From an uncultured Bacteroidota bacterium (GTDB lineage: Bacteria > Bacteroidota > Bacteroidia > Chitinophagales > Chitinophagaceae): 64,000 nucleotides of DNA. A program made the position numbers and the translations under genes. Within the stretch, counting starts at the first letter, position 1; the number at the start of each line of letters is the position of its first letter. Shown piece by piece: positions 947 to 27,357 of the stretch. A model generated the notes under the pieces. It was not told where the DNA came from. It saw nothing but the letters and a program-made list of their open reading frames with translations, and made no database searches. Location of the stretch: NCBI GenBank assembly GCA_903912435.1, contig CAIWHI010000271.1, positions 23,327-87,326 of the forward strand. The letters run 5' to 3'.

Positions 947-1025
947 AGCGCCTGACAGGATTCGAACCTGCATTCTCAATCCAGTTACCTCACTCACCGT
1001 TCGTAGCAGCGGGGGTTACAGGCGC
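947..1025 (-). tRNA. tRNA-like RNA, Arg(ACG) anticodon, no canonical D-arm
   Basis: Acceptor GCGCCTG/CAGGCGC, T-arm GCAGG TTCGAAT CCTGT, loop CTACGAA; D-loop-like AACTGGAT lies 3' of the anticodon arm. Confidence 0.7.
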
Positions 1026-1244
1026 ATCAGCTTTTAATTCTTGAAGCGTTTTCTTTTTGAAATGCTTCCTTGGATTGCCACACATTAAGCATGAACAGAA
1101 CTTCATGTTGTCTACATATTTGCCAGGTGGTTGTTGCTGCAACCCCCATTTGCATAACATTTGTGTGACTTTGACTTTCTTTCGTGCTCTATTTATACGA
1201 CGATGTGCTCTTTTAGTTTCTTTAAAGTTTTCGTCGTCGTACAT
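990..1244 (-). CDS. hypothetical basic protein with CSCxxCGNPR motif
   Basis: 84-aa ORF, AAAGGA RBS. Confidence 0.7.
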   Translation of the reverse strand: MYDDENFKETKRAHRRINRARKKVKVTQMLCKWGLQQQPPGKYVDNMKFCSCLMCGNPRKHFKKKTLQELKADAPVTPAATNGE

Positions 1245-2869: not shown

Positions 2870-2920
2870 TTAGAACCTCCGTTTCATATTTATTTATAAA
2901 ACGTTAGTTCTTACCAGCCA

Positions 2921-2945
2921 CGCTACCAGACTGCGCTAATCTCCG
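2921..2945 (-). pseudogene. 5' fragment of a tRNA-Pro
   Basis: CGGAGAT-TAGCGCAGTCTGGTAGCG (acceptor 5' strand and D-arm), remainder absent. Confidence 0.65.
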
Positions 2946-2950
2946 ATTAT

Positions 2951-3029
2951 TGGTGCCGAAAGTAGGACTTGAACCTACGACCCTTCGCGTATGAAGCAGG
3001 CGCTCTAAACCAGGCTGAGCTACACACGG
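2951..3029 (-). pseudogene. chimeric tRNA (CAT-anticodon 5' half fused to unrelated 3' half)
   Basis: Acceptor strands CCGTGTG and TTTCGGC do not pair; anticodon stem CCTGC/GCGAA pairs only 2 bp. Confidence 0.7.
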
Positions 3030-3035
3030 TAGAAA

Positions 3036-3150: not shown

Positions 3151-3154
3151 AAAT

Positions 3155-3230
3155 TGGGGTGAATAACGGGTAACGCTCCCGTCTAGATGGTTTCACAGAC
3201 CACCGCTATGACCACATCAGCTAAAGTTGC
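3155..3230 (-). pseudogene. chimeric tRNA: foreign 5' part plus duplicated 3' 51 nt of tRNA-His
   Basis: 3155-3205 identical to 3330-3380; 5' GCAACTT cannot pair with the His acceptor. Confidence 0.75.
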
Positions 3231-3232
3231 GT

Positions 3233-3323
3233 TGGTACCTCTGCCGGGAGTCGAACCCAGATTGACCAATTATCTGTTGCTACGGGATATAAATCCGCTG
3301 TTTTACCGTTAAACTACAGAGGT
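3233..3323 (-). tRNA. tRNA with TAT anticodon (Ile) and long extra arm
   Basis: ACCTCTG/CAGAGGT ACCA, loop TTTATAT, about 21-nt extra region. Confidence 0.7.
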
Positions 3324-3329
3324 ATTGTT

Positions 3330-3405
3330 TGGGGTGAATAACGGGTAACGCTCCCGTCTAGATGGTTTCACAGACCACCGTCTACACTTGCTGACTCTAC
3401 TCACC
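3330..3405 (-). tRNA. tRNA-His(GTG), atypical T-loop
   Basis: G-1:C73, loop CTGTGAA, T-loop AGCGTTA. Confidence 0.8.
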
Positions 3406-3651: not shown

Positions 3652-4164
3652 TTAGAAGCGGTAGTCCACCCCTGCAGAGAACAGATGCAGCTGCTTATTG
3701 CTTGCATTCAAATCTCGCAGAGCACGAACTTCACGATAACGGAAGTCAAGGTCTACCGATTCAGAAAGTCCAACTCGTACACCAGCACCGACATTAGCGA
3801 CCGGAGTAGCAGCTCCACCCTTCAGAGAGCCAAGCTTATCAAAGCCATAACCAGCACCAACCAAGACGTAAGGAGTTACGGTCGAATTGGGAATACGGTA
3901 CTGGCCAATGACATTGCCTGTCAGCATATTACCATCGCCATGGGTCTTCCAAGCGTGGTCCACATCTACTTCAGCGCGGACATAAGAACCAAACTGGTAA
4001 CCTGCATTGACACCAAGATCGATGCGTGACTTCTCATCAGTTGACGAACCCAAAGATCCGCCGGCATAGAAGCCAGAACGATCGGCCTTAACTGGATCAG
4101 CTGCAAGCGCAGTACCCGTAAGGGCCAAGAAAGCGACAGCAGCCATAAGTGTATTCTTCATCAT
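3652..4164 (-). CDS. outer-membrane beta-barrel protein (Omp25/RopB-like)
   Basis: Signal peptide ..ALA-AD, SGFYAGGSLG, TPYVLVGAGY, C-terminal YRF BAM motif. Confidence 0.88.
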   Translation of the reverse strand: MMKNTLMAAVAFLALTGTALAADPVKADRSGFYAGGSLGSSTDEKSRIDLGVNAGYQFGSYVRAEVDVDHAWKTHGDGNMLTGNVIGQYRIPNSTVTPYVLVGAGYGFDKLGSLKGGAATPVANVGAGVRVGLSESVDLDFRYREVRALRDLNASNKQLHLFSAGVDYRF

Positions 4165-4293: not shown

Positions 4294-4365
4294 TGGTCGC
4301 TTGGGGTAGAATCGAACTACCAGCTACCGGCTTATGAGACCAGAGCAATAACCATATTCCAAGCG
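4294..4365 (-). tRNA. tRNA-Met/Ile2(CAT) with shortened D-arm
   Basis: CGCTTGG/CCAAGCG, loop CTCATAA, D region only AATATGGTTATT. Confidence 0.75.
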
Positions 4366-5389: not shown

Positions 5390-6040
5390 CTAACCTCGTT
5401 TTTTACCATTTTGTGGTTCAAATTCAGGCAGTAATTTCTTAAATCTTTGTACTAAGTTTGGTAAAGTTTTTTTATATCCTGTTTGGATAACAAACTCTTC
5501 AAACCCAACCTTCTTATATATCATATAGTATTCTCTATATAAGTCAAGTTCTTTTTTACGGCGTATTTCGTTTTCAACTTTTTTCTGTTGTTTGAGCTTT
5601 TTCTTTTCACCCAATCCTTTTTCAGCTAAAGTTTTCGAAACGCTTTCACGTATTTTATTTTTCAATTCAATTGATTTTGTTTTACCAAACTGTGAATTAT
5701 TTATTCCTGATTGAGACAGGCTTTGTATCTCGCTAAATTTTATTCTCAAAAATTCAAATCTTTTAGAAGTTATAACCCTCTGTTGATTTTCACTTTTACA
5801 AACCAACATCATCATAAAAGCTTTGATCATTTTATAATAATTTACAGTGCCTTCAGAATACATTTTTATCAAAAGCAAATGACAGATAAAATGTTCTCTT
5901 GCTGATAAATTTACAAGATTATTTTTATCATCTGTTCCACCTAAAGATTTTGGAACAATATGATGACATTCAACATAACCATTATACGGGTTATTTTTTC
6001 GATTGTCAATAATGTTGTAATAAATTTTAGAGTAATTCAT
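5390..6040 (-). CDS. HNH (Mob-like) homing endonuclease
   Basis: ECHHIVPKSLGGTDDKNNLVNLSAREHFICHLLL. Confidence 0.9.
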   Translation of the reverse strand: MNYSKIYYNIIDNRKNNPYNGYVECHHIVPKSLGGTDDKNNLVNLSAREHFICHLLLIKMYSEGTVNYYKMIKAFMMMLVCKSENQQRVITSKRFEFLRIKFSEIQSLSQSGINNSQFGKTKSIELKNKIRESVSKTLAEKGLGEKKKLKQQKKVENEIRRKKELDLYREYYMIYKKVGFEEFVIQTGYKKTLPNLVQRFKKLLPEFEPQNGKKRG

Positions 6041-18316: not shown

Positions 18317-18679
18317 TTATTCACCTTTTATTTTATAATGATCATTGTAGAGGGTTAACATGATGTAGTGCATAGCTTTCATCAAATCATCTTTGTTTTT
18401 ACCTTTTTTGGAACCGTAGCGCCAAAGGTATTTTTCTGCTGTATCTAGACAAGTGGTGGAAGCAGTGCCCCTGGCGATCCAGGCATCGAGACATTCAAGA
18501 TTTTCTTTTTTATAATGCTCACCATAAGTCCTATTGACATATTTAATCATGTCATTAAGGATGTCTAGTTCATTGTATTTATAATTATAAGTTGGTGGAG
18601 GTTTTATCGAATTAGCTGTTGGATTACCCATTATACAGAGTGCCGGATCGATATTTCCAATATTAATTACTTCAGACAT
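18317..18679 (-). CDS. DUF3310/gp1.7-like nucleotide kinase-like protein
   Basis: TYGEHY..KYLWRYGSKKG..DLMKAMHY. Confidence 0.7.
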   Translation of the reverse strand: MSEVINIGNIDPALCIMGNPTANSIKPPPTYNYKYNELDILNDMIKYVNRTYGEHYKKENLECLDAWIARGTASTTCLDTAEKYLWRYGSKKGKNKDDLMKAMHYIMLTLYNDHYKIKGE

Positions 18680-23101: not shown

Positions 23102-24239
23102 CATATTCTTTAGGTGAAATGTTAGCTTCTTTAATTATCTTATCATCAGATGGATGTGATTTTATGCCATTAAATGTTTTTACTAAACCAAGCTCTAACA
23201 TAGCCCTTTGTCGACCATATGGATGAATAAATTTACTAGAATTCCAAATTTCATCCATATTAAGATGATTATAATCATCACCTGGACGAATATAATTTTC
23301 CAAATATCTAATAAAGTCACAACAGACGTCCTCTGCATTATATGGAATCGACCCGGTATCTTCATAGATCTTCATCATAACACGATCTAAAAAGTCTTCT
23401 TTCTTCATTCGTGAAGTAGGATTAGCCAAATATGAAATGCATTCGACAGCATTGGTTCCATAATAGAACATCGACTCTTTGTTAACATATTGAGGGAACC
23501 AATCGGCAATATCAGCAATAACAGCTGCGTATTGAAACTTATAGGCATTCATGCCATTATCATTGTTCCACTTAAACATGAAGTCGCCTACTTCTCGTAG
23601 GTCTTTCTTTTGAGCTGAAGATTCCAGCCATTCTGCCATATCTCTGGCTAAGCGAGGAGCATATTCACAAAGGTAATAGTCTCCACCACGCTTATAGTCT
23701 TTAGTCGGCTTAGGAAAACTGGGGAACTGATATCCAATAGATGTATAGAAAGGGGCATTGTAGTTCTTAATAAACTTAGCCATTTCTTCAATCGTCTTGT
23801 AGTTATACAAGTGAATCAAAATGGTATTATGATACCCAGATGGCTTAGTAGAATAGTTAATCGCAGAACCGGTAACTCGATGTAAAATGAAAATGTAAAG
23901 CCATTCCGGCAATTTAAAATCGGAATGCTTACCAGTCCAATCATTGGCAACCATCTCACGCTGCCGAGTTACCTTGCCGACCTTCATTTTCTCCCAATAT
24001 GGATGCTTATCTGTCCAACCATAAAAGCAGTCATTAATGATTTGAGAGAAACCGGCATACTTCCTTTCGACTACGTCATAAAGTTCAACATGATGCATCA
24101 GGTCATCATTAACATTGCTTTCTAAATGTGAAAGCATCCCATAAGGAGGATTAGAAGAGACGTTACATTTTTCTTGTTGATCTGAAGCCATAGCGAAATA
24201 TCGCAAGAATTCATCATAGTATTCTGTAGTCTCAATCAT
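23046..24239 (-). CDS. aGPT-Pplase2-like amino acid:DNA transferase
   Basis: YDVVERKYAGFS, HRVTGS, NAEDVCCDFIRY; cluster context. Confidence 0.65.
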   Translation of the reverse strand: MIETTEYYDEFLRYFAMASDQQEKCNVSSNPPYGMLSHLESNVNDDLMHHVELYDVVERKYAGFSQIINDCFYGWTDKHPYWEKMKVGKVTRQREMVANDWTGKHSDFKLPEWLYIFILHRVTGSAINYSTKPSGYHNTILIHLYNYKTIEEMAKFIKNYNAPFYTSIGYQFPSFPKPTKDYKRGGDYYLCEYAPRLARDMAEWLESSAQKKDLREVGDFMFKWNNDNGMNAYKFQYAAVIADIADWFPQYVNKESMFYYGTNAVECISYLANPTSRMKKEDFLDRVMMKIYEDTGSIPYNAEDVCCDFIRYLENYIRPGDDYNHLNMDEIWNSSKFIHPYGRQRAMLELGLVKTFNGIKSHPSDDKIIKEANISPKEYVKMVKQIYLDGVVPNIFS

Positions 24240-26851: not shown

Positions 26852-26865
26852 GTGTTCATAATAGC

Positions 26866-27357
26866 TCAAGTCCGGAGCAACGTTGGTTTCCACTTTTTGA
26901 AGGCTTGAGTTCGGTGAATTGGATTGGCTCTCGAATAAAATGGGATGCCATCCAAGTAGTCCATGCAGTGCTGGAAGGCTCGTGCTGTTAGACCAGTGAA
27001 AGTTTCTGTGCGGACTTCACCATTCGGCATAGCAAAACGAACTCGACAGTGCTGCGGCCTCTTTATCTTAACACGCATATCTGGAAATGTCAATGATGTT
27101 TCTTCAAGCATGACAATTGCTTCACTCGGTTGTACTATGCGAGGATTGAAACACGCATAATTCTGAGGAGACCCTCGCATCACAAACAATCTGTAAGGAA
27201 GACCCACTTGAATAGCAGTAAGGTAAATCGCATTGTGTTCGTACATGAACTTTACCATTTCTTGAGAAAGCTCAAGAGGATCGAATGGCGGTTCCTGAAA
27301 CTTAAATGGTTCGCTCTTTTGCTTTAGAAGAGGGTCATTATATTTTAATAGATTCAT
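26866..27357 (-). CDS. peptide deformylase-like protein with degenerate catalytic motifs
   Basis: PDF scaffold (DPLLKQKS, FNPRI, RP, GLTARAFQH) but AIYLTAIQ, ETSLT, HCMDY. Confidence 0.85.
   Translation of the reverse strand: MNLLKYNDPLLKQKSEPFKFQEPPFDPLELSQEMVKFMYEHNAIYLTAIQVGLPYRLFVMRGSPQNYACFNPRIVQPSEAIVMLEETSLTFPDMRVKIKRPQHCRVRFAMPNGEVRTETFTGLTARAFQHCMDYLDGIPFYSRANPIHRTQAFKKWKPTLLRT

Follow-up and report, generated by a model that had tools for sequence, protein, structure and literature searches.

The window, that is, the whole 64,000-nt stretch of DNA analysed here, belongs to a 132-kb contig of a binned assembly and encodes T4-like head, portal, terminase and tail-sheath proteins; judged by these proteins, its source is a myovirus. 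The left end of the window is a minus-strand tRNA array, in which 23 genes called by ARAGORN are mixed with homing endonucleases and broken tRNA pieces. The gene under study and its parts are given below, with single bases in tRNA numbering.

947–1025, minus strand: swapped-core tRNA-Arg(ACG) gene, 79 nt to the discriminator base, without encoded CCA
1019–1025, minus strand: 5′ strand of the acceptor stem (positions 1–7), with 7 of 7 Watson–Crick pairs to 948–954
1017–1018, minus strand: U8 (1018) and an A (1017) that probably corresponds to canonical A21
1012–1016, minus strand: 5-nt linker, corresponding to canonical 22–26; its second and third bases (1015 and 1014) belong to covarying pairs
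995–1011, minus strand: anticodon arm, with ACG at 1004–1002 and three G-C plus two G-U pairs
987–994, minus strand: positions 44–45, a short linker and the relocated D-stem strand (equivalent to 9–13); 989 and 988 pair with 1014 and 1015
980–986, minus strand: relocated D-loop with A14, A15, G18, G19 and A20; G-G-A at 982–980, A20 being 980
972–979, minus strand: connector ending in A46 and U48, the latter the predicted Levitt partner of A15
955–971, minus strand: canonical T arm, by Rfam alignment and sequence pairing
948–954, minus strand: 3′ strand of the acceptor stem, with discriminator U73 at 947
990–1244, minus strand: 84-aa ORF (PHROG 4499, function unassigned), whose last 36 bases cross the 5′ half of the tRNA gene

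The window gene has a 7-bp acceptor stem with a discriminator base, a T arm of 5 bp with the T-loop consensus, and an anticodon arm with 5 bp, a 7-nt loop, U33 and a purine at 37, all as in canonical tRNAs, and it carries the bacterial tRNA-Arg identity set A20, C35 and G or U36. Just 7 nt separate the 5′ acceptor strand from the anticodon stem, which leaves no room for a D arm there, and no D arm (10–25) was found between the acceptor and anticodon arms. The layout given in a preliminary description of this DNA (7-bp acceptor, T arm, and a short linker running straight into the anticodon arm) proved accurate by sequence pairing. With the Rfam tRNA model (RF00005) the gene reached 29.3 bits, just over the gathering score of 29, and the alignment covered the acceptor and T arm only; no Rfam family besides tRNA matched the gene. 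ARAGORN did not call it, and none of its 23 calls in the window was an Arg gene, in agreement with the earlier statement that the window holds no canonical Arg tRNA; beyond the window the contig does have one canonical Arg gene, with anticodon UCU, and a canonical Arg(ACG) gene is absent from the whole contig. CGU, CGC and CGA together make up 51% of the 1063 Arg codons in the long ORFs of the contig. Single-sequence folding of the gene gave a z-score of −1.78 with the T arm absent from the minimum-energy fold, a weak result that was not used as support.

The rest of the array contained several further elements. The promoter consensus scan returned nothing above chance. A 44-nt repeat (871–914 and 2011–2054, 93% alike) lies upstream of minus-strand tRNA genes and shows, by eye, promoter-like hexamers that the scan did not list. 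Inside the array, positions 375–451 gave a sub-threshold match to the Rfam CyVA-1 RNA (35.1 bits against a cut-off of 41.4), and about 170 nt between two tRNA genes (535–700), GC-richer than the spacers and without an ORF or tRNA call, may be a structured RNA. At 2895–3035 (minus strand), a chimeric-looking Met/Pro-like tRNA is followed by a lone 5′ tRNA half that ends just before the homing endonuclease ORF at 2264–2869. Two identical 52-nt copies (3154–3205 and 3329–3380), neither of them called by ARAGORN, correspond to the 3′ portion of a tRNA gene resembling His(GUG), and a tRNA-like gene at 4297–4365 (minus strand; anticodon CAU, short or odd D arm, Rfam 33.5 bits) was also missed by that program.

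To collect relatives, viral contigs, metagenomes and genomes were scanned with sequence patterns, and the matches were parsed by one descriptor comprising the acceptor, anticodon and T stems, a linker of 4–6 nt and a downstream D-loop motif; pairing of the surrogate D stem was never required. The member filter demanded U13, A14, G18-G19, A46 and the U8-A step, so that the invariance of these bases among relatives, including the U8-A of the window gene, is not independent evidence; it also required 7/5 acceptor/T stems, a feature of which the relatives are no test. The first scan of viral contigs revealed 63 loci, with the same layout in all 63, and the collection reached at least 270 distinct sequences, from phages and including one false match, so the homologs that the preliminary description had proposed as a check do exist. 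Among the matches listed, at least 139 members are Arg (ACG 67, UCU 47, UCG 16, CCU 8, CCG 1) and at least 128 are Ile-type (UAU 67, GAU 45, CAU 16), Arg and Ile making up 267 of 270, with one Trp member and one with anticodon UAC. The Arg identity proposed earlier thus stands for the window gene, by its identity set, and does not extend to the family as a whole. These proportions reflect the search patterns and not nature: the scan for N-C-A/C anticodons used one spacer length and gave one match, the Trp member, so that other isotypes may be missed, and the non-Arg scans were confined to the longer D-loop forms. Median identity was 61% over aligned columns in a set of 200 members, and gene length ranged from 74 to 92 nt. 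Among the matches listed, 96 of the 139 Arg members have an encoded CCA and 43 do not; of the 128 Ile-type members, 107 are without it.

The cultured carriers include Xanthomonas phage Xoo-sp13, Rhizobium phage RHph_I1_18, Stenotrophomonas phage DLP6, Microbacterium phage Pumpernickel, E. coli phage phi92, a Kuravirus and Streptomyces phage Mildred21. Their swapped genes mostly have no annotation; two are entered as 'tRNA-OTHER' and one is misnamed as Phe. Mildred21 (locus L791) holds four swapped genes (5704–5780, 18380–18454, 23368–23443 and 26858–26934), for Ile(GAU) and Arg(UCU), (UCG) and (ACG); its annotation names the swapped Arg(UCG) gene tRNA-Phe(gaa), enters one gene as tRNA-OTHER and leaves two out. 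Of 86 long loci, 2 had an ARAGORN call overlapping a member, and both calls were wrong. In genome contigs, where a loose pattern gave 119 listed loci (of about 1200 estimated), members were found in 3, each within a tRNA cluster or a phage-like contig. A Sinorhizobium meliloti plasmid of 1.67 Mb carries, next to a canonical Arg(UCU) gene, what by eye is a swapped Arg(ACG)-like gene, missed by the descriptor (L793, about 3995–4080). Eight loci with a swapped Arg(ACG) gene (L066, L323, L339, L350, L356, L358, L392 and L425) show a further hairpin, placed after the relocated D-loop and before position 46.

Several candidates resembling the family were set apart from it. The one false match among the 270 (L874) is a class II Tyr gene, and a T5-like partial match (H19) was rejected for its normal 5′ D arm. 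In T5-like phages, an unannotated tRNA-like element (L067, 1465–1545) combines a D arm on the 5′ side with a very short anticodon arm, and its T arm is preceded by the same D-loop-like connector. Within the window, a tRNA-Ile(UAU) gene at 3233–3323 (minus strand) has, besides a normal D arm, a long variable arm with a 7-nt loop similar to an Ile(GAU) anticodon loop. The loci collected contained 74 such long-variable-arm Ile(UAU) genes, with the hairpin stem compensated in 8 of 71, under patterns that selected partly for the motif. They were rejected as members or intermediates, the motif pairing with 23–24 in 0 of 71 and forming its own hairpin.

Covariation between the linker and the relocated strand was assessed in the 258 members with a 5-nt linker, the 12 with other linker lengths being left out. 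The pair columns were unfixed by the search patterns, except in one scan that fixed the first linker base. The alignment was anchored on the stems and the D-loop, whose register was set to the 3′-most motif, a rule blind to pairing; a MAFFT alignment of 40 chosen members, which placed gaps inside the relocated strand, was set aside. The results showed that, among the matches listed, the five proposed pairs were Watson–Crick in 34, 258, 255, 170 and 18 of 258 members, the strong ones being 23:12 (258) and 24:11 (255), with 25:10 at 170. Of the 5-bp surrogate stem proposed in the preliminary description, two pairs therefore held strongly and a third in part, while the outer two fell away. In the set of 200, all four pair types occurred at both strong pairs (147/27/13/13 and 122/42/23/11), and parsimony counted 37 and 37 changes at the two sides of one pair with 37 for both jointly, and 43 and 41 with 43 jointly at the other, against 68–70 for off-register controls; the tree was built without the tested columns, and with sequences this short it is rough and the counts approximate. 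The first parse gave the strong pairs in 194 and 192 of 200, and re-registering six Ile members from an earlier look-alike motif raised this to 200 and 198. The register rule was fixed after the results of the first parse had been seen; the 58 members found afterwards serve as a check, and in them the strong pairs hold in 58 and 57. In a blind ranking of 2556 column pairs, 24:11 came fifth and 23:12 tenth, among the acceptor, anticodon and T pairs, and the next non-stem signal was 35 with 20. Covariation in the aligned genes thus shows the pairs 12–23, 11–24 and, in part, 10–25, and the stem that the earlier description had left to this check covaries at two to three pairs. Its placement of the D-loop and the 5′ strand of the D stem on the 3′ side of the anticodon arm is strongly supported.

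These counts bear on two other readings of the gene. It might be a working tRNA without any D arm, like mitochondrial tRNA-Ser(AGY), in which the long segment is a loose or hairpin variable region and the bases resembling a D-loop do not serve as one. Such a tRNA would account for the empty D-arm site, for a surrogate helix of just 2–3 pairs that adds under 1 kcal/mol in a nearest-neighbour model, and for the extra hairpin in the long segment of about ten members. However, the long segment self-folds no more than shuffled sequences (31% of 170 short members versus 34%) and pairs with the linker in 258 of 258 members among the matches listed, and position 20 tracks the amino acid and 15 tracks 48, as in a real D-loop, all of which makes a D-armless tRNA highly improbable. 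The second reading is decay: the family may work while the window copy is decaying or has been sacrificed to the ORF that overlaps it; alternatively, recombination in tRNA arrays may have left the family as a whole as a pseudogene. Indeed, the window copy ends without CCA, its anticodon stem includes two G-U pairs, C faces A at 25:10, an ORF overlaps it, and its array holds homing endonucleases and broken tRNA pieces. Yet every family-defining position of the copy is intact, it is 90% like its nearest relative over aligned columns, and CCA is missing from two other genes of its array, Leu(UAG) and Ile(GAU), as well. For the family, the dozens of coupled changes exclude neutral decay, and on this comparative evidence its members are not decayed genes; the decayed pseudogene without homologs or covariation, which the preliminary description had named as its refuting alternative, is not what was found. 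Decay or sacrifice in either form appears very unlikely.

The relocated strand was then placed on the canonical numbering. Counted from the anticodon stem, the linker corresponds to 22–26 and the A before it to 21; counted back from the D-loop, the relocated strand corresponds to 13, 12, 11, 10 and 9, the last being A in 169 of 200 members. The best reading of the gene order is 1–8, 21–45, a short linker, 9–20, a short linker and 46–76, which would amount to an exchange of two adjacent blocks. In the tRNA core, U8, A14 and A21 come together, 45 lies by 10–25 and 46 by 13–22, and 15 pairs with 48. Canonical tRNAs from the same loci have U13 mostly with A46 (147/242) and C13 with G46 (373/450), and the family has U13 with A46, both required by the filter; in a scan that left the D-loop and connector free, A46 was present in all 65 members listed and U48 in 63. 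A15 occurs with U48 in 251 of 252 cases among the matches listed, a figure partly fixed by the patterns, and of the six G15 members among them four have C48 and two G48.

The block order also raises the possibility that the transcript is cut and rejoined into canonical order, as for the circularly permuted tRNA genes of red algae and archaea, which are known to exist (PMC3978253, PMC3218864). An internal block swap would require three cuts and joins, against one circularisation for those genes; no joints were seen in four sequencing runs for a phi92-like copy (weak, being contigs only), and linker lengths vary freely among members. We regard restoration of the cloverleaf by processing as exceedingly improbable.

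We then compared the identity bases of the family with those of canonical tRNAs from the same loci. A20 was present in 138 of 139 Arg members among the matches listed, where four scans required it, and in 64 of 65 Arg members of the scan with a free D-loop, which is the unbiased figure; the retention of A20 as an ArgRS determinant, claimed in the preliminary description, therefore holds where the search left the base free. Ile-type members have U20 in 121 of 128 and A73 in 128 of 128 among the matches listed, both unfixed by the patterns. The canonical tRNAs gave A20 in 96 of 100 for Arg, and U20 in 38 of 42 and A73 in 42 of 42 for Ile. The determinants of tRNA-Arg include A20, and the Ile and Arg identity bases agree with Table 1 of PMC9976931. 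U73, the discriminator of the window gene, occurs in 62 of 139 Arg members, and its anticodon loop is common to 63 of 64 swapped ACG members, both among the matches listed. The single Trp member has G73 and A1-U72, which are bacterial Trp determinants. Conservation across the gene sequences shows the G18-G19 motif, A15 with U48, A20 in Arg members, and U20 with A73 in Ile members.

Co-occurrence with canonical genes was examined in 58 de-duplicated loci with at least ten ARAGORN tRNAs (of 86; the 28 with fewer were dropped). The results revealed a canonical Arg(ACG) gene in 0 of 20 long loci with a swapped ACG gene compared with 17 of 38 without one, and a canonical Ile(GAU) gene in 5 of 19 loci with a swapped GAU gene compared with 28 of 39 without; these loci are related and partial, so that p-values overstate the contrast. 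The differences for UCU (2/8 versus 28/50) and UAU (1/20 versus 9/38) were not significant. Pooled, a same-anticodon ARAGORN call accompanied 8 of 67 swapped genes, at least four of these calls being truly canonical by eye. DLP6, whose locus is shorter than 5 kb and lies outside the 58-locus set, has both swapped and canonical Arg(ACG) genes; Mildred21 has both forms of Ile(GAU), and a canonical Arg(CCU) gene along with its swapped UCU, UCG and ACG genes; the phi92 array includes a swapped UCU gene, and no Arg gene is annotated there. This mutual avoidance of swapped and canonical genes with the same anticodon fits a gene that does the canonical gene's job. Ordinary decoding is indicated by the standard anticodon loops, the several synonymous anticodons and the fact that the swapped gene mostly replaces a missing canonical one.

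On the same grounds, the evasion of host tRNA nucleases or non-ribosomal chemistry suggested in the preliminary description found no support, and with standard anticodon loops an escape from anticodon nucleases is not evident. A related reading keeps the fold and the charging and assigns the RNA an off-ribosome job, either supplying an amino acid to a phage enzyme or acting as a decoy for host defence enzymes that cut or modify tRNA. It draws on departures from canonical tRNAs in the core and T stem: a purine at 11 in 145 of 200 members versus a pyrimidine in 714 of 794 canonical tRNAs, a 10–25 pair that is often A with C, and G49-U65 in 79 of 127 Arg members versus 3 of 100 canonical Arg tRNAs. 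These departures at 11–24, 10–25 and, in Arg members, 49–65 could mean weaker ribosomal use. The retention of both forms in DLP6 (ACG) and Mildred21 (Ile GAU) and the near restriction to Arg and Ile among the matches listed point the same way. Against this, five Arg and three Ile-type anticodons and Trp are in use, whereas a donor needs no synonymous anticodons; the same-anticodon canonical gene is mostly replaced; and no partner gene was evident in the annotated neighbourhoods examined. An off-ribosome job is accordingly unlikely. The abundance of homing endonucleases in the array leads to the guess that the unusual form lets the gene escape them.

Taken together, these results are best explained by a conserved phage family with a relocated D-loop and D-stem strand, in which the window gene is probably a working tRNA-Arg with a predicted L shape, charged by ArgRS and reading CGU, CGC and CGA. 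The relocated D-loop and its D-stem strand would pair back with the strand before the anticodon arm, and the three new backbone links (8 to 21, 45 to 9/10 and 20 to 46) would join bases that are already near in space; for that reason, going by general knowledge of the tRNA core, the same core can presumably form. The RNA would be cut from the phage tRNA transcript, receive CCA from a host enzyme, undergo editing of A34 to inosine, be charged by the host arginyl-tRNA synthetase and then be used on the ribosome. The family may have originated in one rearrangement and spread by single-base anticodon changes (UAU-UCU, CAU-CCU, CCU-CCA and UAU-UAC), with position 20 changing to match the new anticodon. 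A broader proposal, which we consider possible and slightly more doubtful than probable, is that this is a second natural tRNA wiring. On this view, phages of hundreds of lineages, among them E. coli phi92 and phages of Streptomyces and Xanthomonas, would translate with non-cloverleaf tRNAs that reach the L shape by an internal strand swap. These tRNAs would have a single origin, would have been extended by anticodon change to Arg, Ile, Trp and perhaps further amino acids, and would be favoured because they are overlooked by host or selfish enzymes whose target is the normal tRNA or its gene.

To our knowledge, cloverleaf order has been treated as universal for full-length elongator tRNAs. The layout was undescribed in the literature searched, a scope mostly outside subscription papers, and supplements of RNA-motif surveys could hold the family. 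The main-text parts of a paper on an Anabaena tRNA operon (PMC8421152) name no such tRNA, and the word phage is absent from PMC7609411. By its comparative sequence evidence, the swapped-core tRNA is a real, well-supported structural variant, apparently not in print and likely functional in translation. If it is functional, the textbook cloverleaf is not the sole way to build a tRNA. A natural, widespread family with the contacts kept and the strands reordered would set the demands of ribosome and synthetases (shape and identity bases) apart from the threading of the chain, and with phage phi92 this question can be tested in E. coli. Inventories of phage tRNAs are in error for Arg and Ile where swapped genes are unannotated, entered as tRNA-OTHER or misnamed, and these errors bear on analyses of codon usage and anti-defence. 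The swapped scaffold could also be a tRNA body that host modification and decay enzymes handle differently.

Compared with known systems, the family resembles canonical class I tRNA-Arg(ACG) and tRNA-Ile (RF00005) in its 7-bp acceptor, its 5-bp anticodon and T stems with 7-nt loops, its D-loop motif, A15/U48, A20 (Arg), U20 and A73 (Ile), and its place in tRNA arrays. It differs from them in having no D arm between 9 and 26, a D-loop 3′ of the anticodon arm and a purine at 11, and in D-stem strands that enclose the anticodon arm, so that a three-way and not a four-way junction results. The usual D-arm site is likewise empty in D-armless mitochondrial tRNA-Ser(AGY) and in armless tRNAs. D-armless mitochondrial tRNAs have lost the D-loop and are short, whereas the family, found in phages of bacteria, keeps a D-loop, G18-G19, a covarying stem and a full length of 74–92 nt. 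The tRNA-like domains of tmRNA, YrlA Y RNA and plant-virus tRNA-like structures also attain an L-like shape, predicted for the family, through other strand connections, but these are parts of larger RNAs and have no decoding anticodon arm or free 7-bp acceptor. Unlike class II tRNAs, the family has no 5′ D arm, and a variable-region hairpin is not above shuffles in the 170 short members. An unusual order of tRNA parts in the gene is shared with the circularly permuted tRNA genes of Cyanidioschyzon and Thermofilum (PMC3978253, PMC3218864), in which the ends are moved and processing restores the cloverleaf; the family, in contrast, has its acceptor strands at the normal ends and two inner blocks exchanged, and it is predicted to stay so in the mature RNA. 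Like the allo-tRNAs and selC* tRNAs (PMC5389517), it consists of non-standard tRNAs of bacteria and phages obtained by sequence mining; those tRNAs keep the cloverleaf order and have 8/4 or 9/3 acceptor/T branches, whereas in the window copy the 7/5 branch is normal and the strand order is changed.
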